64,000 nt of DNA from Eledone cirrhosa (Eukaryota): contig OZ024742.1 of the NCBI GenBank assembly GCA_964016885.1, positions 314,402,001 through 314,466,000 of the forward strand, in the 5' to 3' direction. This document shows, one piece after another, positions 3,100 through 52,757 of the stretch (positions are counted from its first letter, which is position 1; each line of letters begins with the position of its first letter). Position numbers and translations under genes: made by a program. The notes below the pieces were generated by a model. It was given only the letters and a program-made list of their open reading frames with translations. It ran no database searches and was not told where the DNA came from.

Positions 3100-4383
3100 A
3101 ATATATTTAGAAACACACAGATACATGCGGACACACACATATACATGAATGCATCCACACCCAACCGTGAGTTAAGGGTGCCAACCTCACCGATGTTGCT
3201 CAATGAATGACTGGGACAGACCAATCCGGTTGAACTAGACTGAACCAGTATCAGAGTTAAAAATACATTATGAAGAGAGAAGGAACATTTAGATATAATT
3301 AGTAATAAAATGTACCATACCTAAACTGCTCCTAGATTCCTCGACTACGTAGTTTCGTGGCATAAACAAAAACAATACATCATAAAGATATAGAGTCCCT
3401 GCGAGGTCTGCCGACTTATCAAGAGGATACCTCATTTTACTAGTATCAAGAACGCGTCTACACGACGTGAGAAAGAATCCCAAAAGGCGGAGGGGGAGAT
3501 AGTCACGCGATATAACGGTCGAGAAACAGAGCTAAGCCTCTTATAACCCCGAAGAAAATACCACAGAGGCGGAGGGGATATTCATATCGAAGCCGTAGAA
3601 GAGGTGTTGAAGGAGGCGAGAAGTATGAGTAATGGCAGCTTTCCAGCAGTCACCACACTTCAAAGATTACTCAAACAGAGAGGGAGTTATTAACAATATA
3701 TTTAGAAACACACAGATACATGCGGAGCAGTTTAGGTATGATACATTTTATTACTAATTATATCTAAATGTTCCTTCTCTCTTCATAATGTATTTTTAAC
3801 TCTGATACTGGTTCAGTCTAGTTCAACCGGATTGGTCTGTCCCAGTCATTCATTGAGCAACATCGGTGAGGTTGGCACCCTTAACTCACGGTTGGGTGTG
3901 GATGCATTCATGTATATGTGTGTGTCCGCATGTATCTGTGTGTTTCTAAATATATTTTTAATAACTCCCTCTCTGGTTGAGTAATCTTTGAAGTGTGGTG
4001 GCTGCCGGAAAGCTGCCATTACTCATACTTCTCGCCTCCTTCACCACCTATTCTACGGCTTCGATATGAATACCCCCTCCGCCTCTGTGGTATTTTCTTC
4101 GGGGTTATAAGAGGCTTAGCTCTGTTTCTCGACCGTTATATCGCGTGACTATCTCCCCCTCCGCCTTTTGGGATTCTTTCTCACGTCGTGTAGACGCGTT
4201 CTTGATACTAGTAAAATGAGGTATCCTCTTGATAAGTCGGCAGACCTCGCAGGGACTCTATATCTTTATGATGTATTGTTTTTGTTTATGCCACGAAACT
4301 ACGTAGTCGAGGAATATAGGAGCAGTTTAGGTATGATACATTTTATTACTAGTTATATCTAAATGTTCCTTCTCTCTTCATAA
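3100..4383. mobile_element. ORF-less retrozyme-like element B: 595-nt unit, inverted (- 3100-3726; + 3724-4383), in (TA)n
   Basis: Direct repeats with 595-nt period on each arm; arms are near-perfect reverse complements; one HHR per arm. Confidence 0.85.
4224..4313 (+). ncRNA. Hammerhead, U3-A8 variant with ~60-nt stem II (mirror copy 3338-3427, -)
   Basis: TCCTC-TTGATAA-GT.GGCA...TGCCAC-GAAA-CTACGTAG-TC-GAGGA; palindromic stem III, GUC site. Confidence 0.75.
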
Positions 4384-4644: not shown

Positions 4645-4830
4645 ATATTCAATATAGATATGTCTTCGGGTCTAGAACTGGTTCATTCGACGCAAATCAT
4701 CAGCTGGATTTCCTTCGAATGAAACAGTTCTAGTCCTGTAGAAGCCATTTCTATATTAAATATTTATACTCTGCTATGTATTGAGTATGTTACTTACTGT
4801 GGTTATCCCCGATTGAACCCGAAATACACC
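4645..4830 (+). mobile_element. Small fold-back element C (imperfect palindrome ~4645-4760 plus tail)
   Basis: CTAGAACTG..TTCATTCGA / TCGAATGAA..CAGTTCTAG arms; CTGATGA on - strand in the loop; bulged hairpin at 4768-4786. Confidence 0.55.
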
Positions 4831-6982: not shown

Positions 6983-7144
<162 letters not shown>

Positions 7145-8665
7145 AAGAATCAAAGAACTGTTCAAAACATTATTGTGCTTACAGCTGTTTCCTCCAAACC
7201 GAGGTTTGGATTCTTCGGAGCAATTTATTAATGCATGGACAGTTATATGACCTCCTTTTCAGCCGAGAGACATACCAATACATATTCAAACATTGATACA
7301 TATTCAAACATTGTGGGTCAACATTCATTACAAAATTTAGAGTGGCAGTACACACTTCGAGATTACATTTATATTAATAGGTACAATCAAAAATCAAAGA
7401 TATAGGTTAAAGTACAACATGAAGATAAGTGGTTATATAGTGCAAATGTTATATGTGTGGCACGCATGTGCGTCTTGTTTATATAGTGTGGCAGAGAGAT
7501 ATGTGTGGTAGAGGCACTTAGGTAGGTAAATAAGAGTGTTAGGTTGGTAGATCTGGTGGCAAAGTCTTTATATGATTGATGTAGTCTGTGTGTGGAGAAA
7601 TATTATAAGCATTAAAGATAGTGCAAGCATTAAAAGAGTTATAAGTATTGGAGATGCACAACGCAGGGATGTCAAGTAATTCATGTACTTCGGCATTTTC
7701 ATGGTCAAGGGAGTGTATATTTCGATTATATGCCTTTCACATAATCCACGACAATCCAGTTAGAGATCGTAGTCTGGTGTTCTTTAGTTCGATACAGGAG
7801 GTTGTTACGTTTCGAGAGACGCCATTGAATACCGGAAGTGTGTGTGTGGCTAAGGGGAGTTAATGCATGCGGGGAGGTAACTCTGGGGTTTCTATATCCA
7901 GCCATTAAAATGTGTCCCAATATGGACCCTAAATTCTATGGTGAGGTGCACCTTCCAAGAGAGACTTTTAAAGCATAAAGTGTACTAACTATAGAGTAGT
8001 TTAACTAAATTATGCTGAAGGTGATCATATTATTATTAAGGTGGATTAACCCATCTTAAGGTGCTACAAATGGAAATTATAGATGATGAGCGAGGATTCT
8101 AAATTAATGATCTCCGTGGTTGTAGTCTGCTCATATGACCAGGCGCGGTGATTGCAGGATTGCTTCAGGACCCAATGATCTCTGGTAAGATCTGGGTCAT
8201 CGCTTGCTACATTGGATGTCGAAAGATAATCGTCCCCAGGCAGGCCAAAGGTCAATCCGCAGTCCTCGCGACCCCTCTCTGACCGTCAGATCATCCATAT
8301 ACGTACAACCCGCACGGCAGTTGCATTGCATTCACTCACTGCGCTCAGCAGCCCGGTCCTACTGGTCAACAGCGCTACTCGATTAAATCATTTTACATCT
8401 GTCTAAGGAAGGTGTTTCCTCAGCCCAATACCATCCAACCGATCAATTCATGCTCAAATTACCCTTAGAGCGGTGTAGTGCCGTCCAGGTGGGTGGATGT
8501 TGTCACACCTGCCGTAGAGGTATAAATGGGTATTTTCCCTGCGAAGGGTTCCAGAGGGATGTCGTTGTTTGTGTTATAAAGGATCAGCTAGTGTTGGGTA
8601 TGTAGTATAGGGTGTGTCTCTGGTGTTTGATGCTAGATGTGGTGTTAGGTTCCAGTCCGACATTG

Positions 8666-11125
8666 CTATATATAGGGCTTAAAGTTTTGGAAGGAATGTC
8701 TGAGGCGGTGCTGGCAAGTTGCAAACACCTCAGATTTTTTGTTAAGTAGGTTACGGTTGGAGAAGATAATATTGTGTGTCTCTAGTATACAGAGGTTACA
8801 GAATTTATTAGGTGGTTTGTACGAGGTCGCGCTGCCTATCACTTCCCATTTGAGTGTGTATGGTTTATTTTTAGATTTTAGATAGTGTATGTAGCTAGAA
8901 AGTGAGGTGGAGTTGGCTAGGCTGTGCTTTTTGAACGAGTGGATGTGCGAGTTATATCTAATTTTGAAGCAGTTAGAAGTGGAGCCTACATAGGTTTCTG
9001 AAGAGTTATTAGTCGTGACTGTGCATGAGTATATGACATCCTTGGTTAGGCATTTTTTATCTAAAGGGCAGGTTCTATTAGCTCTACAGTTACAATTATT
9101 CTGTGCGTTAGTCCGCTGGTTATAATGCAATGCGGAAGTCTGTGTGGTGGATATAGGATTTTGGGTGTTCAGGTTGACAACCCTGGTGTTATTACTTATA
9201 CTAGTGTTATTTCTATTGTTACTGCCGTTGCTATTGTTGCTTGCTACAGTGGTATTTAGAGGGTTTGCATCCCGTTGTGATTTTGTTTGTTGGAAGTAAG
9301 AACTAATTTTACTATTATTGCTGCTAGCTATGTGGTATGCTAAGTTAGGCGTCGTAGAGTATGAGATTTTAATGGTGTTTTTGTTTAAGAGGTTGTGGTA
9401 CTTGTGTCCTAGAGGGAAGTTTTTATCTAGTAGTGAGAAGAAAGCCCTAGGTATGTTGGTGGAGACATTTAGGTTGAAAGGAGGGTTGAAAAATGTATTA
9501 TTTCTTCTTCTATTTTTGCTTTTAGTGTTTGGTGTGTTGCTTCCTCCTAAGGCCTCACAGTAGTTTCCATGGTAATGGTTACTTCCGGTGGCACCCTCCG
9601 CTTTGGTGTACTTGTGGTTGCTATTCCTATTATTAGATTTCCTCATGGACATGTTGTGCGAGATGATGTTGTAGCTATGTGTTTTCTTAGGTAGGAACTC
9701 TATTTCTATATTATGGCCGGAGCTAGCTAATGCTTGATTGTAATATTGTGAGTTTTTGCTAAATATGTTTGCGTCATAGGACAGACTAGAGATTCTATTG
9801 GACACCCCCTTAGAGATAGAGTTTAATATTGATCTAGGGTGATTAGACTTGGTATCTACGTAAATAAGTTTCTCATTAGGCTTATGGAAAGGTGTATATA
9901 TTTTTGAGTCTAGGTATAGTGTGGCGTCTAGGAAGTTAACATTTTTAGTGTTTTTGTCCATGGTGATACTAAGGTTAAAGTTTTTGAATGTCTTATGCAG
10001 TTGTTTTCTAGTTCTTTCTATATTAAATTTTTTATATTCTATGAGTAGAAGTGCATCATCGCGGTACAAACCACCGTTGAGGTAAGGGAGGTCTTTATGG
10101 ATTTCATTGAGGAGGTATAGGCCGACCAAATCAGTGACCTGCGCCGAGTCACTAGATCCCATGGTTATGTCGAAGTTGTTGTGCGTATCCTTGCGTGTCC
10201 ATAGTTGGTCCTCGAAGGTGATTATGGTTTTACGGGCCGCAAGGATGACATCAACCTGGGCTCTAGTCAGGTCGCTATTGGTCATGGCCATGATAAGTGC
10301 CTTATTTAATAGGATAGGGGAAATAGAGGTGTAGTATGAATTGATATCAAATTGAATAAATTTTTTGTTCTTATTATTCTTGATATCCTTAAACCATTCA
10401 ATTACTTCACCCGTATTTCCCCATTGTTTAAGGTGTATCTTGTGTTTAATTTGTGGGATGATTTTATCCAAAATCTTCTTGCTGATAATACCAATGTCGG
10501 ACTTGGAAGGGCAGATAAGTCTTATCGTGGGGTTGCTGATGAAGTTCTCCTTATGGTCCTTCAGAGAGAATCTAGGGGGGTTCGGAGTGAAAGGTTGTGT
10601 ATGCCTCTGTAGTCCTAGTTTAGACACTATATTATAACCCTCTACATTAATATCTTCTAAGTTTTTCAAGGTGGTTTTTTTGTAGCTTTTATGTAGTTCA
10701 TTATATATAAACTTTCTATAAGTAATATAATCTAGGCTGTATATGTTATTAGTTTTATCTGCGTGTACAATAATGTTATTACTAGTTTTGAATCCACTAA
10801 TAGAAGTGTTAAGTTTGTTTAAGAAGGTGTTGCTTCTAATATGGTGCTTATTGTATTTAATGTTCTTAACTAGTTTAACTAGGTCATTTTCAAAGGAGTT
10901 AAGTAGAGTGTTATGAGGGGGGCTTTTAAAGGTTTTAAAGCCGAAGGAGTCAAAATTGTTAGTATTATTCAAGTTGTTAGATTTGTTTCTATCATAATGG
11001 AATGTCCTCCATCTCACTCTATTGATAAATGAATTTACACTGTTGATCAGCAATTTCTCATATGTATTCCTGGATGGTATTGGTATGTTCTTGGTTGACA
11101 TGGGGAGTTGGTCTTTGATTAGCAT
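8666..11125 (-). CDS. PLE reverse transcriptase + C-terminal GIY-YIG endonuclease (819 aa, uninterrupted)
   Basis: ADKT, KDHK..RLICP, QFDINSYYTSI, ITMGS, LYRDD, VNFLD RT motifs; CxCx5Cx5C linker (CNCRANRTCPLDKKC); VIY..YVG..R...H, CNLC..E..LLN..CQH. Confidence 0.93.
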   Translation of the reverse strand: MLIKDQLPMSTKNIPIPSRNTYEKLLINSVNSFINRVRWRTFHYDRNKSNNLNNTNNFDSFGFKTFKSPPHNTLLNSFENDLVKLVKNIKYNKHHIRSNTFLNKLNTSISGFKTSNNIIVHADKTNNIYSLDYITYRKFIYNELHKSYKKTTLKNLEDINVEGYNIVSKLGLQRHTQPFTPNPPRFSLKDHKENFISNPTIRLICPSKSDIGIISKKILDKIIPQIKHKIHLKQWGNTGEVIEWFKDIKNNKNKKFIQFDINSYYTSISPILLNKALIMAMTNSDLTRAQVDVILAARKTIITFEDQLWTRKDTHNNFDITMGSSDSAQVTDLVGLYLLNEIHKDLPYLNGGLYRDDALLLIEYKKFNIERTRKQLHKTFKNFNLSITMDKNTKNVNFLDATLYLDSKIYTPFHKPNEKLIYVDTKSNHPRSILNSISKGVSNRISSLSYDANIFSKNSQYYNQALASSGHNIEIEFLPKKTHSYNIISHNMSMRKSNNRNSNHKYTKAEGATGSNHYHGNYCEALGGSNTPNTKSKNRRRNNTFFNPPFNLNVSTNIPRAFFSLLDKNFPLGHKYHNLLNKNTIKISYSTTPNLAYHIASSNNSKISSYFQQTKSQRDANPLNTTVASNNSNGSNNRNNTSISNNTRVVNLNTQNPISTTQTSALHYNQRTNAQNNCNCRANRTCPLDKKCLTKDVIYSCTVTTNNSSETYVGSTSNCFKIRYNSHIHSFKKHSLANSTSLSSYIHYLKSKNKPYTLKWEVIGSATSYKPPNKFCNLCILETHNIIFSNRNLLNKKSEVFATCQHRLRHSFQNFKPYI

Positions 11126-12910
11126 ATTGGCAATATTATATGTCAGCTCAACGATATGGAGCAGTTAATAGTATTAGTTATACTATTTATGGTTATGTAA
11201 ACACAAAACCTTAAGCAGTTGTAAGTATTTTACACACACCCTAAATAGTGGTAGGCAGTAATGTATTACTACCTTATTACCAGTAAGTTAAGTAGCTCAA
11301 TGTAAAAACATCAGAAGATTTACAGAGCAGTTATATGAAATATAAGAATCAAAGAACTGTTCAAAACATTATTGTGCTTACAGCTGTTTCCTCCAAACCG
11401 AGGTTTGGATTCTTCGGAGCAATTTATTAATGCATGGACAGTTATATGACCTCCTTTTCAGCCGAGAGACATACCAATACATATTCAAACATTGATACAT
11501 ATTCAAACATTGTGGGTCAACATTCATTACAAAATTTAGAGTGGCAGTACACACTTCGAGATTACATTTATATTAATAGGTACAATCAAAAATCAAAGAT
11601 ATAGGTTAAAGTACAACATGAAGATAAGTGGTTATATAGTGCAAATGTTATATGTGTGGCACGCATGTGCGTCTTGTTTATATAGTGTGGCAGAGAGATA
11701 TGTGTGGTAGAGGCACTTAGGTAGGTAAATAAGAGTGTTAGGTTGGTAGATCTGGTGGCAAAGTCTTTATATGATTGATGTAGTCTGTGTGTGGAGAAAT
11801 ATTATAAGCATTAAAGATAGTGCAAGCATTAAAAGAGTTATAAGTATTGGAGATGCACAACGCAGGGATGTCAAGTAATTCATGTACTTCGGCATTTTCA
11901 TGGTCAAGGGAGTGTATATTTCGATTATATGCCTTTCACATAATCCACGACAATCCAGTTAGAGATCGTAGTCTGGTGTTCTTTAGTTCGATACAGGAGG
12001 TTGTTACGTTTCGAGAGACGCCATTGAATACCGGAAGTGTGTGTGTGGCTAAGGGGAGTTAATGCATGCGGGGAGGTAACTCTGGGGTTTCTATATCCAG
12101 CCATTAAAATGTGTCCCAATATGGACCCTAAATTCTATGGTGAGGTGCACCTTCCAAGAGAGACTTTTAAAGCATAAAGTGTACTAACTATAGAGTAGTT
12201 TAACTAAATTATGCTGAAGGTGATCATATTATTATTAAGGTGGATTAACCCATCTTAAGGTGCTACAAATGGAAATTATAGATGATGAGCGAGGATTCTA
12301 AATTAATGATCTCCGTGGTTGTAGTCTGCTCATATGACCAGGCGCGGTGATTGCAGGATTGCTTCAGGACCCAATGATCTCTGGTAAGATCTGGGTCATC
12401 GCTTGCTACATTGGATGTCGAAAGATAATCGTCCCCAGGCAGGCCAAAGGTCAATCCGCAGTCCTCGCGACCCCTCTCTGACCGTCAGATCATCCATATA
12501 CGTACAACCCGCACGGCAGTTGCATTGCATTCACTCACTGCGCTCAGCAGCCCGGTCCTACTGGTCAACAGCGCTACTCGATTAAATCATTTTACATCTG
12601 TCTAAGGAAGGTGTTTCCTCAGCCCAATACCATCCAACCGATCAATTCATGCTCAAATTACCCTTAGAGCGGTGTAGTGCCGTCCAGGTGGGTGGATGTT
12701 GTCACACCTGCCGTAGAGGTATAAATGGGTATTTTCCCTGCGAAGGGTTCCAGAGGGATGTCGTTGTTTGTGTTATAAAGGATCAGCTAGTGTTGGGTAT
12801 GTAGTATAGGGTGTGTCTCTGGTGTTTGATGCTAGATGTGGTGTTAGGTTCCAGTCCGACATTGCTATATATAGGGCTTAAAGTTTTGGAAGGAATGTCT
12901 GAGGCGGTGC

Positions 12911-15086
12911 TATTAGAAGCAACACCTTCTTAAACAAACTTAACACTTCTATTAGTGGATTCAAAACTAGTAATAAAATTATTGTACACGCAGATAAAAC
13001 TAATAACATATACAGCCTAGATTATATTACTTATAGAAAGTTTATATATAATGAACTACATAAAAGCTACAAAAAAACCACCTTGAAAAACTTAGAAGAT
13101 ATTAATGTAGAGGGTTATAATATAGTGTCTAAACTAGGACTACAGAGGCATACACAACCTTTCACTCCGAACCCCCCTAGATTCTCTCTGAAGGACCATA
13201 AGGAGAACTTCATCAGCAACCCCACGATAAGACTTATCTGCCCTTCCAAGTCCGACATTGGTATTATCAGCAAGAAGATTTTGGATAAAATCATCCCACA
13301 AATTAAACACAAGATACACCTTAAACAATGGGGAAATACGGGTGAAGTAATTGAATGGTTTAAGGATATCAAGAATAATAAGAACAAAAAATTTATTCAA
13401 TTTGATATCAATTCATACTACACCTCTATTTCCCCTATCCTATTAAATAAGGCACTTATCATGGCCATGACCAATAGCGACCTGACTAGAGCCCAGGTTG
13501 ATGTCATCCTTGCGGCCCGTAAAACCATAATCACCTTCGAGGACCAACTATGGACACGCAAGGATACGCACAACAACTTCGACATAACCATGGGATCTAG
13601 TGACTCGGCGCAGGTCACTGATTTGGTCGGCCTATACCTCCTCAATGAAATCCATAAAGACCTCCCTTACCTCAACGGTGGTTTGTACCGCGATGATGCA
13701 CTTCTACTCATAGAATATAAAAAATTTAATATAGAAAGAACTAGAAAACAACTGCATAAGACATTCAAAAACTTTAACCTTAGTATCACCATGGACAAAA
13801 ACACTAAAAATGTTAACTTCCTAGACGCCACACTATACCTAGACTCAAAAATATATACACCTTTCCATAAGCCTAATGAGAAACTTATTTACGTAGATAC
13901 CAAGTCTAATCACCCTAGATCAATATTAAACTCTATCTCTAAGGGGGTGTCCAATAGAATCTCTAGTCTGTCCTATGACGCAAACATATTTAGCAAAAAC
14001 TCACAATATTACAATCAAGCATTAGCTAGCTCCGGCCATAATATAGAAATAGAGTTCCTACCTAAGAAAACACATAGCTACAACATCATCTCGCACAACA
14101 TGTCCATGAGGAAATCTAATAATAGGAATAGCAACCACAAGTACACCAAAGCGGAGGGTGCCACCGGAAGTAACCATTACCATGGAAACTACTGTGAGGC
14201 CTTAGGAGGAAGCAACACACCAAACACTAAAAGCAAAAATAGAAGAAGAAATAATACATTTTTCAACCCTCCTTTCAACCTAAATGTCTCCACCAACATA
14301 CCTAGGGCTTTCTTCTCACTACTAGATAAAAACTTCCCTCTAGGACACAAGTACCACAACCTCTTAAACAAAAACACCATTAAAATCTCATACTCTACGA
14401 CGCCTAACTTAGCATACCACATAGCTAGCAGCAATAATAGTAAAATTAGTTCTTACTTCCAACAAACAAAATCACAACGGGATGCAAACCCTCTAAATAC
14501 CACTGTAGCAAGCAACAATAGCAACGGCAGTAACAATAGAAATAACACTAGTATAAGTAATAACACCAGGGTTGTCAACCTGAACACCCAAAATCCTATA
14601 TCCACCACACAGACTTCCGCATTGCATTATAACCAGCGGACTAACGCACAGAATAATTGTAACTGTAGAGCTAATAGAACCTGCCCTTTAGATAAAAAAT
14701 GCCTAACCAAGGATGTCATATACTCATGCACAGTCACGACTAATAACTCTTCAGAAACCTATGTAGGCTCCACTTCTAACTGCTTCAAAATTAGATATAA
14801 CTCGCACATCCACTCGTTCAAAAAGCACAGCCTAGCCAACTCCACCTCACTTTCTAGCTATATACACTATCTAAAATCTAAAAATAAACCATACACACTC
14901 AAATGGGAAGTGATAGGCAGCGCGACCTCGTACAAACCACCTAATAAATTCTGTAACCTCTGTATACTAGAGACACACAATATTATCTTCTCCAACCGTA
15001 ACCTACTTAACAAAAAATCTGAGGTGTTTGCAACTTGCCAGCACCGCCTCAGACATTCCTTCCAAAACTTTAAGCCCTATATATAG
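12911..15086 (+). pseudogene. 5'-truncated inverted copy of the same RT-EN ORF (lacks ~94 N-terminal codons)
   Basis: Translation matches 8666-11125; begins abruptly at the inversion junction 12910/12911. Confidence 0.9.
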
Positions 15087-16529
15087 CAATGTCGGACTGG
15101 AACCTAACACCACATCTAGCATCAAACACCAGAGACACACCCTATACTACATACCCAACACTAGCTGATCCTTTATAACACAAACAACGACATCCCTCTG
15201 GAACCCTTCGCAGGGAAAATACCCATTTATACCTCTACGGCAGGTGTGACAACATCCACCCACCTGGACGGCACTACACCGCTCTAAGGGTAATTTGAGC
15301 ATGAATTGATCGGTTGGATGGTATTGGGCTGAGGAAACACCTTCCTTAGACAGATGTAAAATGATTTAATCGAGTAGCGCTGTTGACCAGTAGGACCGGG
15401 CTGCTGAGCGCAGTGAGTGAATGCAATGCAACTGCCGTGCGGGTTGTACGTATATGGATGATCTGACGGTCAGAGAGGGGTCGCGAGGACTGCGGATTGA
15501 CCTTTGGCCTGCCTGGGGACGATTATCTTTCGACATCCAATGTAGCAAGCGATGACCCAGATCTTACCAGAGATCATTGGGTCCTGAAGCAATCCTGCAA
15601 TCACCGCGCCTGGTCATATGAGCAGACTACAACCACGGAGATCATTAATTTAGAATCCTCGCTCATCATCTATAATTTCCATTTGTAGCACCTTAAGATG
15701 GGTTAATCCACCTTAATAATAATATGATCACCTTCAGCATAATTTAGTTAAACTACTCTATAGTTAGTACACTTTATGCTTTAAAAGTCTCTCTTGGAAG
15801 GTGCACCTCACCATAGAATTTAGGGTCCATATTGGGACACATTTTAATGGCTGGATATAGAAACCCCAGAGTTACCTCCCCGCATGCATTAACTCCCCTT
15901 AGCCACACACACACTTCCGGTATTCAATGGCGTCTCTCGAAACGTAACAACCTCCTGTATCGAACTAAAGAACACCAGACTACGATCTCTAACTGGATTG
16001 TCGTGGATTATGTGAAAGGCATATAATCGAAATATACACTCCCTTGACCATGAAAATGCCGAAGTACATGAATTACTTGACATCCCTGCGTTGTGCATCT
16101 CCAATACTTATAACTCTTTTAATGCTTGCACTATCTTTAATGCTTATAATATTTCTCCACACACAGACTACATCAATCATATAAAGACTTTGCCACCAGA
16201 TCTACCAACCTAACACTCCTATTTACCTACCTAAGTGCCTCTACCACACATATCTCTCTGCCACACTATATAAACAAGACGCACATGCGTGCCACACATA
16301 TAACATTTGCACTATATAACCACTTATCTTCATGTTGTACTTTAACCTATATCTTTGATTTTTGATTGTACCTATTAATATAAATGTAATCTCGAAGTGT
16401 GTACTGCCACTCTAAATTTTGTAATGAATGTTGACCCACAATGTTTGAATATGTATCAATGTTTGAATATGTATTGGTATGTCTCTCGGCTGAAAAGGAG
16501 GTCATATAACTGTCCATGCATTAATAAAT

Positions 16530-16576
16530 TGCTCCGAAGAATCCAAACCTCGGTTTGGAGGAAACAGCTGTAAGCA
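16530..16576 (+). ncRNA. PLE pseudo-LTR hammerhead with CCGAAGA core (copies 7176-7222 and 11375-11421 on -)
   Basis: TGCT-CCGAAGA-a-TCCAAAC ctcg GTTTGGA-g-GAAA-CAGCTG-TA-AGCA. Confidence 0.75.
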
Positions 16577-16866
16577 CAATAATGTTTTGAACAGTTCTTT
16601 GATTCTTATATTTCATATAACTGCTCTGTAAATCTTCTGATGTTTTTACATTGAGCTACTTAACTTACTGGTAATAAGGTAGTAATACATTACTGCCTAC
16701 CACTATTTAGGGTGTGTGTAAAATACTTACAACTGCTTAAGGTTTTGTGTTTACATAACCATAAATAGTATAACTAATACTATATATATATATATATATT
16801 AAAGAGTTAAACAAGATTATTCAATGAGTACATCAAAGAATGATTTTACAGTAAATTGGAAGCACT

Positions 16867-16915
<49 letters not shown>

Positions 16916-16918
<3 letters not shown>

Positions 16919-17301
16919 TATAGACATAGAATATTCGAAAATATTCTGTATGTTTATAATAAACATTTTGAAGACCTAATCGCTATAGAATAGAATACGT
17001 CACGTATTACAATTAGATTCTCGATAAAAGCAAGGGAAGTAATCTACGCGTTTCATTCTTATTAGAAATCTTCAGGACTACATATCCAGTGCTTTTATCG
17101 AGAATGACACATTTCTCGATAAAAGCACTGGATATGTAGTCCTGAAGATTTCTAATAAGAATGAAACGCGTAGATTACTTCCCTTGCTTTTATCGAGAAT
17201 CTAATTGTAATACGTGACGTATTCTATTCTATAGCGATTAGGTCTTCAAAATGTTTATTATAAACATACAGAATATTTTCGAATATTCTATGTCTATATT
17301 C
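16916..17301. mobile_element. 386-bp palindromic element D with one HHR per arm
   Basis: Reverse-complement arms centred at ~17108, flanked by TA repeats. Confidence 0.85.
17136..17178 (+). ncRNA. Minimal type-I hammerhead (mirror 17039-17081, -)
   Basis: GTAGTC-CTGAAGA-t-TTCT aata AGAA-t-GAAA-CGCG-TA-GATTAC. Confidence 0.8.
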
Positions 17302-17331
17302 ACATATATATCGCTATTTCAGAGCATTTAT

Positions 17332-17417
<86 letters not shown>

Positions 17418-17829: not shown

Positions 17830-20509
<2,680 letters not shown>

Positions 20510-23192: not shown

Positions 23193-25826
23193 GTTATCTC
23201 TTTCTCTTAATTTCGAATATATTCTTTGACCGGCCACCTTCCTGGTGGTAAGGTTGTAAAAGAAAAGAAATTGTCATCCCTTGAATCGCAAGAATGTTTT
23301 GCAAATTTTGAAGGTGCCAGCGTCGCAGCCATTTGTAGACTATGAATTAGGGAGCTGCGCTTTTTGTCCGCAAATCCAAGTTCAGTCATACTTTGGTCCA
23401 AGCGGGTTGGTATATAACCCGTAGCTCTAATAATGATGGGTATGAAGCTAAAGGTGTATCTTGGATACTGGATTTGTAAACTCCTCATAAATGGTCCGTA
23501 GATGTCCTCCTTCTCCTGTATTTTTCTGACAACGTTTACATCAAGTTGGCAGCTGATCTCCACAACAGAACACGTTTTCAATGTGTGGTCCCAAACAACA
23601 ATATCAGGCCGGTTGTGCTTTAATTTGGTGGCAGTTTTTATTTTCAGGTTCCACCAATATTCCTTAGTGCCATCTGTCTCAATATATTCTTCCTCGTTTG
23701 TTGTTAATTTTGTTTTCTGAAGTGCGTTCCAGATGGTTCTGGCTATCCCATCGTGTCTCACGGGGAGGTAGTAGCGAGATGACATTCTTTCGCAGCTGGC
23801 AACAATGTGGCTTACATCCTCGATCTTTGTTTTACATAGCCTACATTTATTGTCAGCTGCTGGCCCTACCCTTTTGTGCAACAGATATTTGGTAGGGAGT
23901 TCTTGTTCCTGTATTGGAGAGATATATCCCTCAAGATATGATGTCATAAACTTGTCGGAACTCAATGCCAAGCTTTTTGAGTGGTTTATCCCCTCTATGG
24001 TCTGTGTTTTACGCCTCAAGAATCCATGCACAACTTTTTCTGTAAATTGGTCAATTTTTTCATCTTGTTTGAACATTGAAATAGATCTTCCGATTTCTCT
24101 GGGTGAGAGATTTATATCAGGCTTTATTCCATATCTCTCCTCCAGATCAGTCACTATTCTAATGATATTTTTTTTTCATGCTCATAAACCTGGGCAAGAT
24201 GGTTGCCAACCTTTTTCCTCTGTTGAAGGTGTTGCTTCAGTGTTACTATCCGGGTCTCATATGTTGTTAATATGGATTTTTTACCCCGGCCACCTTCCTT
24301 GCGTGAGAAGTATAGCCTATCCACATCACCATTGATGTTAAAGTTACCAGTAACACTGAGAAGTTTGCGAGTTCTAACATCCATCTCACTTAGTTCTTAC
24401 AATGACCAGTTCAGCAGGCCAAATGTTGGCGTTAGAATTGGCACAACATAAGTATTGTGGGCAATGTACTTGTTGTACGCTGACAGTTCTGATGACCATA
24501 TTTTCTTTACTCTTCTGAGGTATTCAGTTCTGGTTCTCTCCTTATTTATGGGTCCATCATATCTGACATTCTCATCCTGTCCAAGATATCTGTAGTTGTC
24601 ACCTGACTGTAGAGGTTGTATTGTCAGGCCGTTCATCTCTAGATTTCTAGAGGGGGCACAGCTCTTCCACGTTTTACTGCCAAATATGCACACTTGGACT
24701 CACCAAATTTCATTTTGATGTCTGTTGAAAATTGTGTAATGAGGTCCAATTGTTTCTTGATGTCATTGATATGTGGCCCATACAACTTCAGGTCATCAAC
24801 AAAGAAAAGAGGGGAGATACTTCTTTGACCACTTTGTTTCCTGAGTAGGTAAGATAGTGGGTTTAGTGAGAGAACGAAGAGTAGCACTGGCAAGCTATCA
24901 CCCTGAATGATGCTCTTCTGGTAATGTATCTTATCACTCTTAACTTGCTCCTTCTCACCTCTAAGGATCAAATTGGTGTACCAGTTCTTGGTCAGGCGTT
25001 CAACAGCAGCTACCAATGGTTGTGGGACTTTGGCTAACTGTAAATCCTTAATAATCCACCCATGAGGTACACTATCAAATGCTTTTTGATAGTCCAGCCA
25101 CACCACAGTCATGTTTCTGCGATTCTTTGTTGTCTTTTCCTGAATCATTTTATTAGTTAGTAGGTGATCCAGCTTGCTCAGGTGTTATGATGTTGTTGGT
25201 AGCACAGTGATCCTGTAAGAACAGGTTAAGGCACCTAGTATATAATTTATACATGATGTTTTGGCAGGCTATTGGGCGGTCATTTTTGGCAAGGGTGGTT
25301 TGGCTATTTTGGGGAATGAGGAGAGTAGTGGCAGTTGATAACCATCTGGGCAGTTCTGGTGTGCCTTTAATGGATTCTGTAAACAGCCGTATGAGATTTT
25401 GCCGATAGAAAGTGAAATTCTTCAACCAGTATCCTGTAATGAGGTCTGGGCCTGGTGATTTCCTATTCGACATTTTCTGTAGAGCTGTTTCCAGTATTGA
25501 CCCATCTATGTCATATTGTTTTGTCTGGACATGTTGGCAGTAGTCCTGTTCCAGTTCTTTTAGCCAATTAGTTTGTCTGTTGAATCCGTCATCCGTTTCC
25601 CATACATATCTCCTGTAGCTCTCAACCTGTTCTTTTGAAGGGGTGTCATTTACAGGGATTGAGCTTTTGCCACCGAAGCTGCGATAAACTGATTTAGGAT
25701 CTCTGGCAAACAATCTATTTAGCACTTGTCGTTTATGTGCTGTTGACTTATATTTTAGTCTTGTTGTTTCGACTGGTGTAATTTGGAGTTCAAAGTTTTA
25801 AATTTTGTATCTCCCAATCGTCTCTC
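23193..25826 (-). mobile_element. Decayed R4/Dong-like non-LTR retrotransposon (RT + CCHC + restriction-like endonuclease) in (CATA)n
   Basis: Broken ORFs with KSPGPD, RPIAC, WLDYQKAFDSVPH, QGDSL, FVDDLKLY, YRYLG, CRLC..H...C, RHD, HNRPDIVV..E; stops and frameshifts. Confidence 0.85.
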
Positions 25827-31641: not shown

Positions 31642-32282
31642 AATTAAGTTAAAAATGTAGATCCACATATGTATACTGAAAGACTAGTATGCATATGAAT
31701 ACACACACGTATACATATGTAGATGTACCAAGTCTTTCACTGGTCACTTTACTGTGAGTATCCAGCTATTCTGTATGTAAACACACAGACAAACCGGTTT
31801 TTAGAGTCATACTGGTTTTTGTGGAAACACCTTTCCTCTATTCTCCAGACAAGGCTATGCAAATTGGTCTGCCCACTACTAATTTTCATAGAAAAAGCAT
31901 ATAACGATATGTGCTTTTACGATTCTCCAGAAAGGCCGGTAGATAGGTAAATATTGCTGATGAGTTGTAACAACAACGAAACTAGTTCAATGTTCCTTGT
32001 CTGGCTTTCTGGAGAATAGAGGAAAGGTGTTTCCACAAAAACCAGTATGACTCTAAAAACCGGTTTGTCTGTGTGTTTACATACAGAATAGCTGGATACT
32101 CACAGTAAAGTGACCAGTGAAAGACTTGGTACATCTACATATGTATACGTGTGTGTATTCATATGCATACTAGTCTTTCAGTATACATATGTGGATCTAC
32201 ATTTTTAACTTAATTGTTTAAGCGTCAGTCATACAAAAGTGAGTTACAAACGAAACGAAATTTAATTTCGTTTCGTTATTTG

Positions 32283-32288
<6 letters not shown>
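31642..32288. mobile_element. Diverged family G copy (inverted), HHR at 31950-31994 (+)
   Basis: Homologous to 18998-20476 with the same two termini; stem II GTTGT/ACAAC versus GATGT/ACATC (compensatory). Confidence 0.85.
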
Positions 32289-32356
<68 letters not shown>

Positions 32357-35750: not shown

Positions 35751-35790
<40 letters not shown>

Positions 35791-35792
<2 letters not shown>

Positions 35793-35983
35793 CGAAGGAA
35801 ATGTGGTAAGGTACCAGGTGGACCATAACGCACCAAAGTACTCAATACTTAGGGTAGTAGAGTGGGTAATGGGAACGAGTAGGACCCCGACGGCTGAGCT
35901 CAAGCCGTTTCGACGGCTAATTCTGGACTCAGAATTAGCCGTCAAAACGGCTTGAGCTCAGCCGTCGGGGTCCTACTCGTTCC
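35791..35983. mobile_element. Family A fold-back copy retaining the 3' half of an HHR
   Basis: On -: GCCGTC-GAAA-CGGCT tgagctc AGCCG-TC-GGGG; palindrome 35872-35983. Confidence 0.7.
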
Positions 35984-36748
35984 TATATATATATATATAA
36001 AGTTTCTCATCTAAGTAATTTTAAATAAAAGCAGTAGCAGTTCTCCGGCTTGTCCGAGTAATTTCTTAAAACACATTTTTGATAAAATATTTAAAACGAT
36101 GCTAGCTATGTCGTAGGATTGACGATCTGTTCACAATTGTGTTTTCAAGTAATTGAAAAGATGGCACATATGCATGCGCAATATATGCAAGTATATAACC
36201 TAAAATATTTACGCTTACATTTTCTTGGTAAACGTTCTTGTTTTGAAAATATAGTAATTTACGTAGCTTACTCGAATTATTTTCTATTTGACAACTTTTA
36301 TCAATATCTATTTTAGTACTTGGTTGTGAAAACGATTGGTGATATAACGCGATGTATTTTAAAGAAATGTCACTTAATCTATGAACAGATGTAAGTTTAT
36401 GTGTACCCAAATGTTAATGTTGTAGCCAGCAACTTGGAATATCTGTTTTTACATATTGCGATAATTAAACATCTATGTTGTACATAAATATGTACATAAT
36501 TTCTACACAATTTTTTTTAAAAACATGGCTAAATAAATTAACCTAGAACTTCTGGTCGGAATTGCTTTAACCTTCTGTTTCGTTATCTATTCTTAGAATA
36601 TTCTCATACAAGGAATTATGAGGTATCACGATTAAACCGCAATGCAGTATAGAATGCGTGAAAATGTGTGTAAAATTGTCAATGTAAATTTACTAAGATA
36701 TGTTCCAGTGCGTAATGATTATTTTATTTCCAAATAAATGTATATATT

Positions 36749-36807: not shown

Positions 36808-37440
36808 CGTACAATAAGAAAAGATTTAAAAAAAAATTTATTTTTTTTATTTTTACTTACTTAAATTTTCACTCCAACTAATTAGTTTCTGCAATGGGAT
36901 AAAGACAGTTACGTAATCTAACTGTCGAGAATTCATTGCGTCATCAGGGAGTCTATTCTCAGCTAAGTCTCCAGGCAATGCGCGGACACTGGCGGCTCAT
37001 ATAAAAATAATAATAATTCGGTAGATGGAACAGCTAGCGAGGACTGAATTCCATGCACTGAAATCCTCACTGCCTCTAGTCAAATGGCCGATTCTAAAGA
37101 ATCAATCACGTGACACAGAGGCTAGTCAGAAGGAATGGGATGGTAACATGACAGACGCCTACTAACACCCCCCCAAAAAATTTTTTTAGAAGTGGTTTTG
37201 GCAGGTTTGCTCGACAAATCAGTGATTTGGAGATAAATAAAGATAATTTAATATATCAGAAAATTTAAATCAGTAAGTAAAAATTTAAAAAAAAAATTTT
37301 TTTAAAAAGATTTTCTTATTTTACGTCTTTTATATTATTGTTCTGCATCCTCCTGCATTGAACCACCTAGGTACTATGACATAACCTGTGTATTTGCTGG
37401 CATAGGCGTGCATCTGTGCGCTTATGTTAGTTGATATATT

Positions 37441-37614: not shown

Positions 37615-38712
37615 ATACTATTTGTAGGTTATGTATATAGTATAAACACCCACAAACAGGAAGGTCAGTAATTTCTTAATAACCTTATTACCAGTAAGGG
37701 AAATAGCTCAATGTATGAACATCAGTTGTTTTACAGAGCAGTTAAATCAATAAATTATACAATTATCAAAGTTGTGTTCAAATCATTTAATAGCTGACAA
37801 TCGTTTCTTCCAAACTCTCGATTGGAATGATCGGAGCATTATCAATGTTTGCACATATAATTCACCTCCTATTCAACTGAAGAATAATATAGATACATAT
37901 AAATTGATGTTGTGAGCAACAGTTTCGTATTTACAGGGTGGGATGGATGCGACATATATTTTACGAGAATTGTACCATAATTATACAAGCATTCAAGTTC
38001 AAATTAAAATCAAAATCAAAATTAAATCAAAATCAAAATCGAAATCAAAAGCACGGAGTGGAATACATGCAACAGTTAAAACAAGGGAATTGTCCAAATA
38101 TTAAAGAGGCATTGAGGAAGCAGTTTTGAAAAAAGGAATCGTGCGATAACAATTCATATGCAGGCGTGTGGATATTGTGACTGCGTAGGTCTTATACAGG
38201 AGAAGGAGAGAAGCCAAGCTAGTATGCATATATAGAAGAATAAATACTGTAGTTAGAGCAATTGTGTTAATGTATTAGAGTCTATTGTGGGTGTTGGATG
38301 TTTATGGTGTTCGAATTAATGTGTGTTGAGAAACATACAGTTTTTGCAGACTTTTCCATGACATATGTTGAAATAAACTTTAGTTGGTGTTTATAATGCG
38401 TGTTTAAGTTAGTCACTTCCGGAAATTAACGATTGAAAATTTAACGGTTGATCAAATATAGCCTATGAATATGAATTCATTAAGACTAATTTACAATCCA
38501 TTGCTCTAACTAACTTAAACACTCATTATAAACACCAACTAAAGTTTATTTCAACATATTTATATGTATCTATAATATTGTTCAGTTGAATAGGAGGTGA
38601 ATTATATGTGCAAATATTGATAATGCTCCGATGATTCCAAACGAGAGTTTGGAAGAAACGATTGTCAGCTATTAAATGATTTGAACACAACTTTGATAAT
38701 TGTATAATTTTT

Positions 38713-44700: not shown

Positions 44701-44990
44701 TTGGAAAGGAGGTCATGTATGTAAACAATCATTTAAAAATTGCTCCGAAGACTCCAAACCTCGGTTTGGACGAAACAATTGTAAGCTAATAAATGGTTTG
44801 AACAGAACTTTGATTCATGTGATTTCTATATAACTGCTCTGTAGAACAACTGATGTTATTACATTGAGCTATTTATCTTACTGGTAATAAGGTAGTAATA
44901 AATTACTGTCTTACACTGTTTAGGGTTTAAAATATATATAACTATAAAAAGTTTTAGTATATACATAACCATAAATAGTATCCTTAATAC
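38763..44990. mobile_element. Older Hydra-like PLE, inverted structure (- 38763-42253; + 42254-44990), HHRs 38803-38849 (-) and 44742-44786 (+)
   Basis: ORF remnants closely similar to 8666-11125 with stops/frameshifts; + arm has an internal RT deletion at ~42709; different 3' UTR. Confidence 0.9.
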
Positions 44991-50084: not shown

Positions 50085-51437
50085 TGATAAACACGAAATG
50101 TGTTTATATTGCAACAGACAAAGTTAGCTATTAATGAAATAAACTAATTAAAGTGAATACAATTTGTCTGTCTCGATATAAGTCAATAAAGACAAGCTTA
50201 TATTGGCAACGGCCATTTCGTGTTTATCATATATTTTAAATGTATTTAACTGCTCGGAAGAGCCCCTTCCTGGAGCTTAATTATTGTAAACGACTGAGAG
50301 TTTATTCTCAAAATATAATATAATGTATAGCTCCTTTATTGTAGAGCTGATCCTTAATCCTGCATAAGCGGCTGTTATTTCTAGCACCGTGAATGCTGGA
50401 CGGCTAGTTTTTGGCCTGCCTACACACGTGTAGTCAGACTTGCAAACTTTTTGATGTGAGATATCTAATTTTACTGGATTCCTGTTGATAAGCACAGAAG
50501 ATTTGGATATTTCACTCTTTTATTTCTATTCCATTTCGATTCTCTTTATTTTTCAATTCACATTCCACCGTTGCGAAACTTATTTAGGTTTCGAGGTTCA
50601 AATTCGTCTACAGAACAGGTTTGAATTTTGAAATTTAAATCTGTCCAGGAATCATGGCCGTTGCCAATATAAGATTGTCTTTATTGACTTATATCGAGAC
50701 AGACAAATTGTATTCACTTTAATTAGTTTATTTCATTAATAGCTAACTTTGTCTGTTGCAATATAAACACATTTCGTGTTTATCATATATTTTAAATGTA
50801 TTTAACTGCTCGGAAGAGCCCCTTCCTGGAGCTTAATTATTGTAAACGACTGAGAGTTTATTCTCAAAATATAATATAATGTATAGCTCCTTTATTGTAG
50901 AGCTGATCCTTAATCCTGCATAAGCGGCTGTTATTTCTAGCACCGTGAATGCTGGACGGCTAGTTTTTGGCCTGCCTACACACGTGTAGTCAGACTTGCA
51001 AAAGTTTTGATGTGAGATATCTAATTTTACTGGATTCCTGTTGATAAGCACAGAAGATTTGGATATTTCACTCTTTTATTTCTATTCCATTTCGATTCTC
51101 TTTATTTTTCAATTCACATTCCACCGTTGCGAAACTTATTTAGGTTTCGAGGTTCAAATTCGTCTACAGAACAGGTTTGAATTTTGAAATTTAAATCTGT
51201 CCAGGAATCATGGCCGTTGCCAATATAAGATTGTCTTTATTGACTTATATCGAGACAGACAAATTGTATTCACTTTAATTAGTTTATTTCATTAATAGCT
51301 AACTTTGTTTGTTGCAATATAAACACATTTCGTGTTTATCATATATTTTAAATGTATTTAACTGCTCGGAAGAGCCCCTTCCTGGAGCTTAATTATTGTA
51401 AACGACTGAGAGTTTATTCTCAAAATATAATATAATA
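50077..51437. mobile_element. ORF-less element H: 556-nt unit, ~2.2 tandem copies plus ~135-bp inverted arm, in (TA)n (diverged fragment ~33660-33910)
   Basis: 556-nt period (50277 vs 50833); same tandem/inverted architecture as the HHR families. Confidence 0.85.
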
Positions 51438-52433: not shown

Positions 52434-52590
52434 CGAAGGAAATGTGGTAAGGAACCAGGTGGACCATAACGCACCAAAGTACTCAATACTTGAGGTAGTA
52501 GAGTGGGTAATAGGAACCAGTAAGACCCCGACAGCTGAGCTCAAGCCGTTTCGAAACGGCTTGAGCTCAGCTGTCGGGGTCTTACTGGTT

Positions 52591-52755: not shown

Positions 52756-52757
<2 letters not shown>

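Follow-up and report, generated by a model that had tools for sequence, protein, structure and literature searches.

In telomerase repeat addition the 3' end of the product realigns on a short internal template, and in L1 twin priming two target strands prime on one RNA, which leads to inversion. Among described elements, the Hydra clade of the Penelope-like retrotransposons (PLEs) resembles the locus studied here in its protein motifs, (TA)n targeting and pLTR hammerhead, as well as in its partial tandem with an inverted copy and a tail at one end (Craig et al. 2021, PMC8557442); there the tail is ascribed to cleavage by the endonuclease (EN), and the words 'hairpin' and 'stem-loop' are absent from the main text. 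A second likeness is PAc, a Poseidon PLE from Anolis, for which the tail is bounded in vitro by two internal sites, downstream of the hammerhead, at which the RT starts, both target strands being cut and extended and ribozyme cleavage being dispensable (Frangieh et al. 2024, PMC11167929). The 3' stem-loop of UnaL2 is likewise a bulged-hairpin cis signal common to non-autonomous partners; in L2 and SINEs the bulged stem and slippage function at initiation, and this template slippage has been likened to telomerase (Nomura et al. 2006, PMC1636434). Finally, non-LTR retrozymes (Cervera and de la Pena 2020, PMC7229834), like three of the families described below, are tandem, have no ORF and carry a type I hammerhead. 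Their mobilization by PLEs has been proposed, with pLTR homology and co-occurrence as the arguments (PMC7229834; Li et al. 2026, bioRxiv 10.64898/2026.07.22.740005), and a mobilization signal is not named in the available portions of either source.

The window that we analysed, 64,000 nucleotides of Eledone cirrhosa DNA, contains a young PLE inserted head-to-head, together with older copies:

7133 to 16783, unstranded: whole head-to-head insertion, arms joined at 12911 (self-BLAST).
8666 to 11125, minus strand: 819-aa ORF of the young PLE (Hydra clade), RT and C-terminal GIY-YIG endonuclease (RWR 38, DKT 123, YRDD 354, CxCx5C 678, CxxC 776, CxH 804).
11372 to 11424, minus strand: candidate minimal type I hammerhead from a pattern scan, core CCGAAGA at 11417, predicted cut after 11379.
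7180 to 7218, minus strand, and 16534 to 16572, plus strand: further candidate hammerhead copies of this element (pattern scan).
11295 to 11328, minus strand: hairpin 1 (GCTC, upper stem of 5 bp, TT bulge, GAGC), roughly 50 nt past the predicted ribozyme cut.
16623 to 16656, plus strand: second copy of hairpin 1, inside the tail of the end-2 arm.
11146 to 11162, minus strand: hairpin 2, with an upper stem of 1 bp, 20 nt ahead of the ATG.
7133 to 7140, minus strand: end 1, where the element meets (TA)n, 3 nt ahead of the hairpin 1 position as counted from the end of homology.
16780 to 16783, plus strand: end 2, where the element meets (TA)n, 5 nt ahead of the hairpin 2 position.
37706 to 37739, minus strand: hairpin 1 of an older Hydra PLE copy.
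44836 to 44869, plus strand: hairpin 1 of another older Hydra-type copy.

We assign the young PLE to the Hydra clade from its protein motifs, hammerhead and (TA)n target. The protein agrees with the definition in section 11 of Craig et al. 2021 (PMC8557442): the RWK-type and DKT motifs of the Hydra-clade RT N-terminus (RWR 38, DKT 123) and the Hydra-type EN features (CNCRANRTC 678, VIY 697, YVG 712, CNLC 776, CQH 804) are present and CCHH is absent, as judged by eye; the remaining features of the clade, a pLTR hammerhead (here a candidate) and insertion into (TA)n, are found as well. No Pfam family was found for the protein, and no relative was found in the viral contigs searched. Dozens of intact copies are present in the genome. 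In the window the end-1 arm (minus strand) spans 5.8 kb or 1.4 units, the end-2 arm (plus strand) spans 3.9 kb, and the 165 nt separating the two ends make up the tail. A fold-back origin of the second arm was rejected, since each arm holds sequence missing from the other.

A bulged hairpin beyond such ends had been picked out in an initial annotation of the window, and our findings confirm and widen that observation. All 16 hairpins it listed are in place; those that follow the two ends of the young PLE have the form RCTC-[stem-loop]-TN-GAGY. The hairpins at 11146-11162 and 50330-50347 have an upper stem of only 1 bp, and the one at 3799-3858 has an A-C mismatch as its outer pair. A hairpin follows each 3' end of the young PLE at a distance of 7-8 nt, as had been claimed, when measured from the start of the TA microhomology, and of 3 and 5 nt when measured from its end. 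Across the window the offset is 0-8 nt in 13/13 pairs of junction and read-through copy, two of these alignments being weak (F2 site 2, score 17; H site 1, score 26). We then collected termini de novo from 664 kb, comprising the window and 600 kb taken irrespective of the motif, which yielded 62 recurrent (TA)n-terminus classes with an informative read-through copy. Class-weighted motif starts amount to 9.6 in the 0-9 nt bins versus 0-1.4 per 5-nt bin elsewhere, and 11/62 classes are positive against a background of 3.2% (p 4e-6, for classes that are not fully independent). Six of the 11 are families that the annotation had not listed (6/54, p 0.007), and 51/62 are motif-negative. Variants also follow recurrent ends: a hairpin with a 1-nt bulge in class 12 and a mismatched one in class 27. 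Genome-wide, one strict pattern has 89,798 matches versus 964 for a reversed control, a count that speaks to abundance only, since amplification of a few families drives it.

The lower stem had been said to covary. Among the families of this genome this holds for the outer pair only, with the GTTC/GAAC version confined to family F; the lower stem is almost invariant in 22 outside lineages, over which the motif columns are invariant, and is therefore uninformative on pairing. In the same lineages the upper pairs of hairpin 1 form in 21/22, 19/21 and 17/19, a result matched by 0/10000 shuffles, and RNAalifold recovers the same fold with a covariation score reached by 0/500 shuffles, both tests taking no account of kinship among lineages. 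The upper pairs of hairpin 2 form in 15/16, 6/14 and 6/8, and its covariation is not significant (p 0.18-0.40). Because G-U and A-C pairs are both rare, these data do not distinguish an RNA hairpin from one in single-stranded DNA. An unpaired 3' flank, ACT-N-T, which the annotation had missed, is conserved too, its positions being kept in 34, 36, 38 and 36 of 39 hairpins, although the anchor pattern partly demanded that flank. Among the Rfam matches listed (150 of 152) no meaningful family lies over any hairpin of the window, and an Rfam search of 8 loci gave only one sub-threshold, unrelated match. A twister-sister-like ribozyme was rejected, as it requires 5- and 6-nt internal loops.

Further families of the window carry the same hairpins:

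3724 to 4318, plus strand: family B, 595-bp ORF-less unit, hairpins 3799-3858 and 3964-3982.
4229 to 4235: core of a candidate U3-A8-type hammerhead of family B, predicted cut after 4308, assigned by hand.
4768 to 4786, plus strand: family C hairpin.
17986 to 18506, minus strand: family F, 521-bp ORF-less unit, hairpins 18441-18464 and 18327-18345.
18078: core of a candidate canonical hammerhead of family F, predicted cut after 18009 (pattern scan).
18561 to 18579: inverted copy of family F; second locus at 37209-37232 and 37340-37363.
50214 to 50769, plus strand: family H, 556-bp ORF-less unit in 2.2 tandem copies, hairpins 50252-50276 and 50330-50347.
50485 to 50491: core of a candidate long U3-A8-type hammerhead of family H, predicted cut after 50645, assigned by hand.
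35771 to 35986, unstranded: family A head-to-head pair, hairpin 1 at 35840-35863 (minus strand).
799 to 822 and 52481 to 52504: other family A hairpin copies.

The longest ATG ORFs of B, F and H are 57, 67 and 27 aa, and the three resemble retrozymes in being tandem non-coding units with a type I hammerhead, here a predicted one. All retain both hairpins and have copies ending at both, in units of 521-595 bp, which sets them apart from published retrozymes. One family F arm stops at 18853, matching neither site. Family C corresponds to class 83 of the de novo set, with the motif in 5/7 read-through copies. For family A the annotation had predicted a second hairpin past the known end, and it was found there. 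Read-through copies of this family enter a Hydra-type ORF with a tandem period of 3.54 kb (L253-L256), and the existence of a coding partner of the same sequence rules out family A as a non-autonomous element; we assign it to another autonomous Hydra PLE, of which it is the pLTR end. A 257-bp tandem derivative of family A is present at L235. The families had been called unrelated, but they have an architecture in common, namely the Hydra-type pLTR modules hammerhead, hairpin 1 and hairpin 2. Nor is the motif common to all (TA)n-targeting elements, as had been supposed: it is specific to the Hydra clade, and both a co-resident CCHH-type (non-Hydra) PLE and family E are without it.

Outside this genome we sampled 78 metagenome relatives with 28-42% protein identity. 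The motif follows the hammerhead in 34/37 scorable copies (200 nt of downstream sequence, no TA run), scored with an anchor pattern composed after inspecting the relatives; it occurs two or more times in 25, is missing from 3/37, and is found in 61/1545 random windows of the same loci. The upper-stem register test and the motif definition of the initial annotation are the out-of-sample parts of this comparison. One false hammerhead (L156, 169) is included among the 57 copies of the motif count and excluded from the terminus and covariation sets. An antisense control (25/37) is invalid, GCTC/GAGC being its own reverse complement, and was left unused. Termini lie 0-4 nt before a hairpin in 5/11 outside comparisons listed (L122, L141, L142, L153 and L144, the last at a contig end). 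Inspection by eye shows the motif in Hydra consensi published for coral and sea cucumber, clearly in 3 of 6, and these consensi likewise end before a hairpin position; Hydra-1_Obim has no clear match, Hydra-1_Crog is deviant and Hydra-1_Amil stops before the motif. On these sequences, Hydra-type PLEs from several animal groups carry the hairpin twice after the predicted ribozyme.

The two ends are used in combination. Head-to-head insertions join an end-1 arm to an end-2 arm in 24/24 classified pairs from samples not selected on end: 8/8 for the young PLE, and 10/10 and 6/6 for family A, where 3/13 pairs were unclassified, one of them possibly end-2/end-2. In a selected sample L243 is an end-2/end-2 exception, and three more coordinate pairs look alike. 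A further 30 end-2 copies were found with a query containing that end, of which only the partner arms are informative; there are 7, outside the 24, and all are end 1. With a query upstream of both ends, 11 of 30 loci stop at end 1, 15 at end 2 and 4 read into the ORF. In addition, 1-5 extra copies of the adjacent 9 nt are present on 8/18 end-1 arms versus 0/50 read-through arms. Such a stutter is the trace that repeated re-priming would leave, and argues for realignment of the primer on UAUA.

Since copies end just before either hairpin, the hairpin is likely to be a copying-start signal. We put at roughly 70% the probability that the hairpins are RNA binding sites holding the RT, so that copying would start internally on the AU-rich bases just 5'. 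That a cis signal fixes the copy start and is shared by non-autonomous RNAs, as the annotation had proposed, appears well supported by the fixed offset, the conservation across the clade, the family A prediction and the stutter, once the notions of unrelated families and of (TA)n generality are dropped. A fuller scheme, in which Hydra PLEs integrate by programmed twin priming, seems to us an even bet. One RNA would carry two portable 16-60-nt hairpins loading two RTs. The endonuclease would cut both (TA)n strands; one RT would prime one strand at hairpin 2 and a second RT the other at hairpin 1, with a single RNA probably serving both. The 3' end of the target would pair with the UA-rich bases, and its realignment after about 9 nt may leave repeats of the telomerase kind. 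The two cDNAs would pass through the ribozyme site, implying an uncut tandem or circular template, and once they were joined at truncated 5' ends the insertion would be head-to-head and tailed on one side. Any RNA retaining both hairpins would then be mobilized in trans.

An unlikely alternative is that RNA is cut under the direction of the hairpin, by an element protein or a host nuclease, at a place a few nt 5' of it, and that ordinary TPRT then starts from the new 3' end. A cut of this kind accounts for the fixed offset and for the hairpin missing from the copy, and 3'-end priming in L2 also yields stutter (PMC1636434), but the strict end-1/end-2 pairing requires two differently cut RNAs per event, and the motif matches no Rfam ribozyme or other family. 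We regard it as a long shot that the motif acts in DNA, the endonuclease binding an inverted repeat, or a single-stranded cDNA hairpin in a longer intermediate, and cutting beside it to resolve the ends. The invariant GCTC/GAGC arms and few G-U pairs are in keeping with this, as are the tail requirement for recognition by the D. virilis EN, as cited in PMC11167929, and the wording of Craig et al. 2021, tail by EN-mediated resolution (PMC8557442). However, the extra 9-nt units suit re-priming rather than cutting, arm spacing varies from 8 to 50 nt with the upper stem paired, the motif is invariably on the ribozyme's strand, and the PAc tail ends are RT start sites (PMC11167929). It is highly improbable that the hairpins serve translation or RNP packaging while copying begins at the nearest UA-rich stretch for other reasons: hairpin 2 does sit near the start of the ORF in relatives and, in the window, roughly 20 nt ahead of the ATG, but B, F and H, which have no ORF, retain the hairpins and have ends at each of the two, the ends in 30/30 loci make no use of UA-rich stretches in other parts of the unit, and the ends track a hairpin spacing that varies from 55 to 165 nt. 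Chance resemblance in AT-rich repeats has a negligible claim. In its favour are the brevity of the motif, the presence of a loose version in 3% of random 15-nt windows and the absence of the motif from most terminus classes, but chance is already contradicted by the hammerhead-copy count (34/37 vs 4%), the invariant columns, the upper-stem covariation and the family A outcome.

The preferred reading, an internal start set by the hairpins, departs from each known system. Compared with telomerase, the repeats added here by stutter are abortive, and long synthesis follows them; compared with L1 twin priming, both primers start at fixed, signal-defined sites. The tails of 55-165 nt are bounded by two copies of one motif, whereas those of Craig et al. 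2021 measure 30-40 nt (PMC8557442). PAc starts in an ORF stem-loop rich in AC, at sites without homology to the target (PMC11167929); here the starts lie 5' of a repeated bulged UTR hairpin, on UA-rich bases matching (TA)n, with stutter. L2 has a single hairpin, located 5' of the start, and each insertion includes a copy of it (PMC1636434); ours, for which the enzyme is a PLE RT, is 3' of the start, duplicated and absent from the arm that begins at it. Its position 3' of the junction and its duplication rule out identity with an L2/SINE-type 3' stem-loop. We found no description of the duplicated hairpin motif in the openly accessible literature searched.

The motif bears on start-site choice in PLEs, on the tail found on one inverted arm only, and on the use of PLE enzymes by retrozymes, and it can serve as a marker for annotating Hydra-derived repeats. 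Direct mutational tests become feasible with a cis motif shared across the clade, start sites predicted to the exact position, and an 819-aa enzyme that is intact and high in copy number. The stutter suggests that an RT sister to telomerase realigns on an internal template. If true, a twin-priming signal would explain the tail, the head-to-head structure and how the retrozyme-like RNAs of this genome are mobilized, and it could be transplanted to any RNA.

We observe that the genome around the window (3.0 Gb) carries a young Penelope-like element (PLE) with two 3' ends, each lying just before a bulged hairpin. The element and its pLTR, in sense order, are laid out as follows:

7133-16783, young Hydra-clade PLE, a single head-to-head insertion with a 5.8-kb arm (minus strand) and a 3.9-kb arm (plus strand), the outward ends of both arms in (TA)n
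11379, position after which the hammerhead is predicted to cut
11295-11328, hairpin 1, preceded by end 1
11146-11162, hairpin 2, preceded by end 2
11125, ATG

The 819-aa ORF has the Hydra-clade protein marks, checked motif by motif against the definition of Craig 2021 (PMC8557442). An Asn/Ser-rich insert between RT and EN (residues ~490-660 of the ORF at 8666-11125) is ~100 aa longer than in most relatives; N-rich inserts have been described in rotifer Penelope (Arkhipova 2013). In its source one Hydra PLE protein (P0036) bears the name 'GATA zinc finger domain-containing protein 14-like', probably a mis-annotation.

All 16 hairpins listed in the initial annotation are present in the window, and at 13 junctions of the window's families homology ends 0-8 nt before a hairpin. 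A query placed upstream of end 1 and end 2 retrieved 30 loci of the young PLE; all 30 stop at end 1 (11) or end 2 (15) or read through into the ORF (4). A blind set of 664 kb, taken without regard to the motif, gave 1005 (TA)n junctions in 102 recurrent terminus classes, of which 62 had a read-through copy that was informative. The motif most often begins 0-9 nt past the terminus, and 11 of the 62 classes are positive against a background of 3.2%; six of the 11 are families absent from its list (p 0.007). Classes 1 and 3 carry the motif in a minority of copies only, and class 12 has a variant with a 1-nt bulge. The motif is absent from the remaining informative classes, some of which are internal TA runs, tails of simple repeats or elements of another type.

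For the wider clade we used a protein alignment of 51 sequences (50 of the 120 matches listed, plus the query), which recovered 78 metagenome loci at 28-42% identity. The hammerhead is found in 48 of these (57 copies). Downstream sequence of 200 nt free of a TA run was available for 37 copies; the motif follows the hammerhead in 34 of them and occurs at least twice in 25, as compared with 61 of 1545 random windows. Across 22 clusters below 65% identity, each with one representative, the distance from the ribozyme cut to the start of the hairpin is 36-69 nt for hairpin 1 and 101-134 nt for hairpin 2. The upper stem of hairpin 1 covaries: its three pairs are kept in 21/22, 19/21 and 17/19 lineages, several types of pair occur, and none of the shuffles does as well; in the same set the upper pairs of hairpin 2 are not above shuffles. 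The first upper pair forms in 58 of 64 distinct hairpins with a 2-nt bulge, against 1, 2 and 10 with bulges of 0, 1 and 3 nt, and an unfitted alignment gives the same folded structure. The consensus is RCTC-Y...R-TH-GAGY-ACT-N-T, AU-rich on its 5' side. By eye, three of six published Hydra consensi have a clear motif: Hydra-2_Amil, Hydra-1_Ajap (both copies) and Hydra-2_Ajap. Hydra-1_Crog is deviant, Hydra-1_Amil stops before the position and Hydra-1_Obim has no clear match. Two loci (L144, L175) have a third, looser copy 177-191 nt past the cut, at the ORF start.

A second hairpin had been predicted just past the end of repeat family A. Patterns ending at its distal end with no TA after gave 431 and 852 matches, of which 60 loci were examined; 14 copies run on into TCTA-GCTC-CTAY...GTAG-TA-GAGCACT or a close variant, as predicted, and most others continue as (TA)n-like sequence. 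The read-through copies lead on to a Hydra-type ORF, which makes family A the truncated terminus of a further autonomous PLE. This element and the ORF-less units of the window are:

G000:C1:91475117-91488771 (L253-L256), second autonomous Hydra PLE with family A as pLTR, a tandem array of period 3.54 kb
family B, 595-bp tandem unit; family F, 521 bp; family H, 556 bp; each ORF-less, with a hammerhead and both hairpins, all on one strand

The ribozyme of the second PLE is of the U3-A8 type (Cervera 2014) with long stems. Those of B and H were assigned by hand to this variant as a prediction; in constrained folds stem I closes and not every helix forms as drawn. A 257-bp tandem made of the family A pLTR alone (L235) is apparently a retrozyme-like unit born from the autonomous PLE.

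The signal is a Hydra-clade trait. Other elements in the window are:

52756-55150, CCHH-type (non-Hydra) PLE, also (TA)n-inserted, with two 3' ends ~42 nt apart
18997-20475 and 31642-32289, family E, a tandem repeat of 476 bp that ends recurrently at two positions and has an HH9-like hammerhead
16916-17335, class 13, a family of 310-bp tandem repeats, hammerhead at 17142, with a different hairpin past its end
23207-25797 (minus strand), broken non-LTR retrotransposon that retains pieces of its RT and a restriction-like domain at the C terminus

No such hairpin occurs in the CCHH-type tail in 25 loci (L259-L283); the scan flagged two, of which one lies in adjoining family A sequence and the other is a weak match overlapping the distal end. 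The motif is likewise absent from family E (classes 50 and 56) and its relatives (classes 19 and 34); family E and relatives alike have an unbulged CGG/CCG-type hairpin ~6-8 nt beyond one end, possibly the signal of another clade.

Head-to-head insertions of the young PLE join unlike ends, end 1 with end 2, in 8/8 cases. Family A pairs are unlike in 10/10 classified cases in the 664 kb (three unclassified) and in 6/6 from loci retrieved with other elements as targets; in the window B, H, F at its second locus and older Hydra copies pair in the same way by appearance. Like-end exceptions, L243 and probably three coordinate pairs, come from a sample selected for end 2. A tail on one inverted arm only is already known (Arkhipova 2013), and the link of each arm to one motif copy is apparently new relative to the literature found. 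In the window insertion the ORF start is in the left arm and the 165-nt tail between ends 1 and 2 in the right; since each arm holds sequence absent from the other, neither was copied from the other. In four loci (L005, L008, L019, L023) an end-1 arm of just ~10 nt stands opposite a long end-2 arm, which suggests that the site-1 RT often aborts early.

At end 1, one to five extra copies of TTTCATATA lie between element and (TA)n in 8 of 18 distinct arms and in none of the 50 arms that read through (about four being the same place fetched twice). Since TATA stands on either side of the unit, a product with TATA at its tip could realign at the start. The extra copies may also have arisen later, by slippage beside the microsatellite; against this, the young copies concerned are 99% identical. 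In one CCHH-type locus (L273) a 7-8-nt stretch of the tail is repeated about five times in tandem ahead of (TA)n, and the stutter may thus extend beyond Hydra.

From these sequences we favor, at a probability of roughly 0.7, the hairpins as protein-bound start signals for two RTs priming on both (TA)n strands. The PLE protein would bind both hairpins and cut both strands of (TA)n; one RT would start 5' of hairpin 2 and the other 5' of hairpin 1, with one target strand per RT pairing with UA-rich bases as its primer. Arms pass the ribozyme site with no pile-up there and some exceed one unit, which argues for an uncut tandem or circular RNA as template. For comparison we take telomerase repeat addition and the twin priming of L1. 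RNA cleavage at the site is an unlikely source of the ends, and resolution of the ends at the DNA level is less probable again. We give little credence to hairpins serving translation or packaging, and next to none to chance resemblance.

No description of the motif was found in the passages searched, drawn mostly from open-access papers and including text of Frangieh 2024 (PMC11167929), the Li 2026 preprint, Craig 2021, Cervera 2014 and 2020, Arkhipova 2013, Nomura 2006, Schostak 2008, PMC6765202 and PMC11620745; the motif is apparently undescribed so far. The RNA motif is real and clade-wide; in Hydra PLEs and the ORF-less units partnered with them it lies at both probable start sites of copying, and from genomes we infer a function in starting it that lends itself to direct test.
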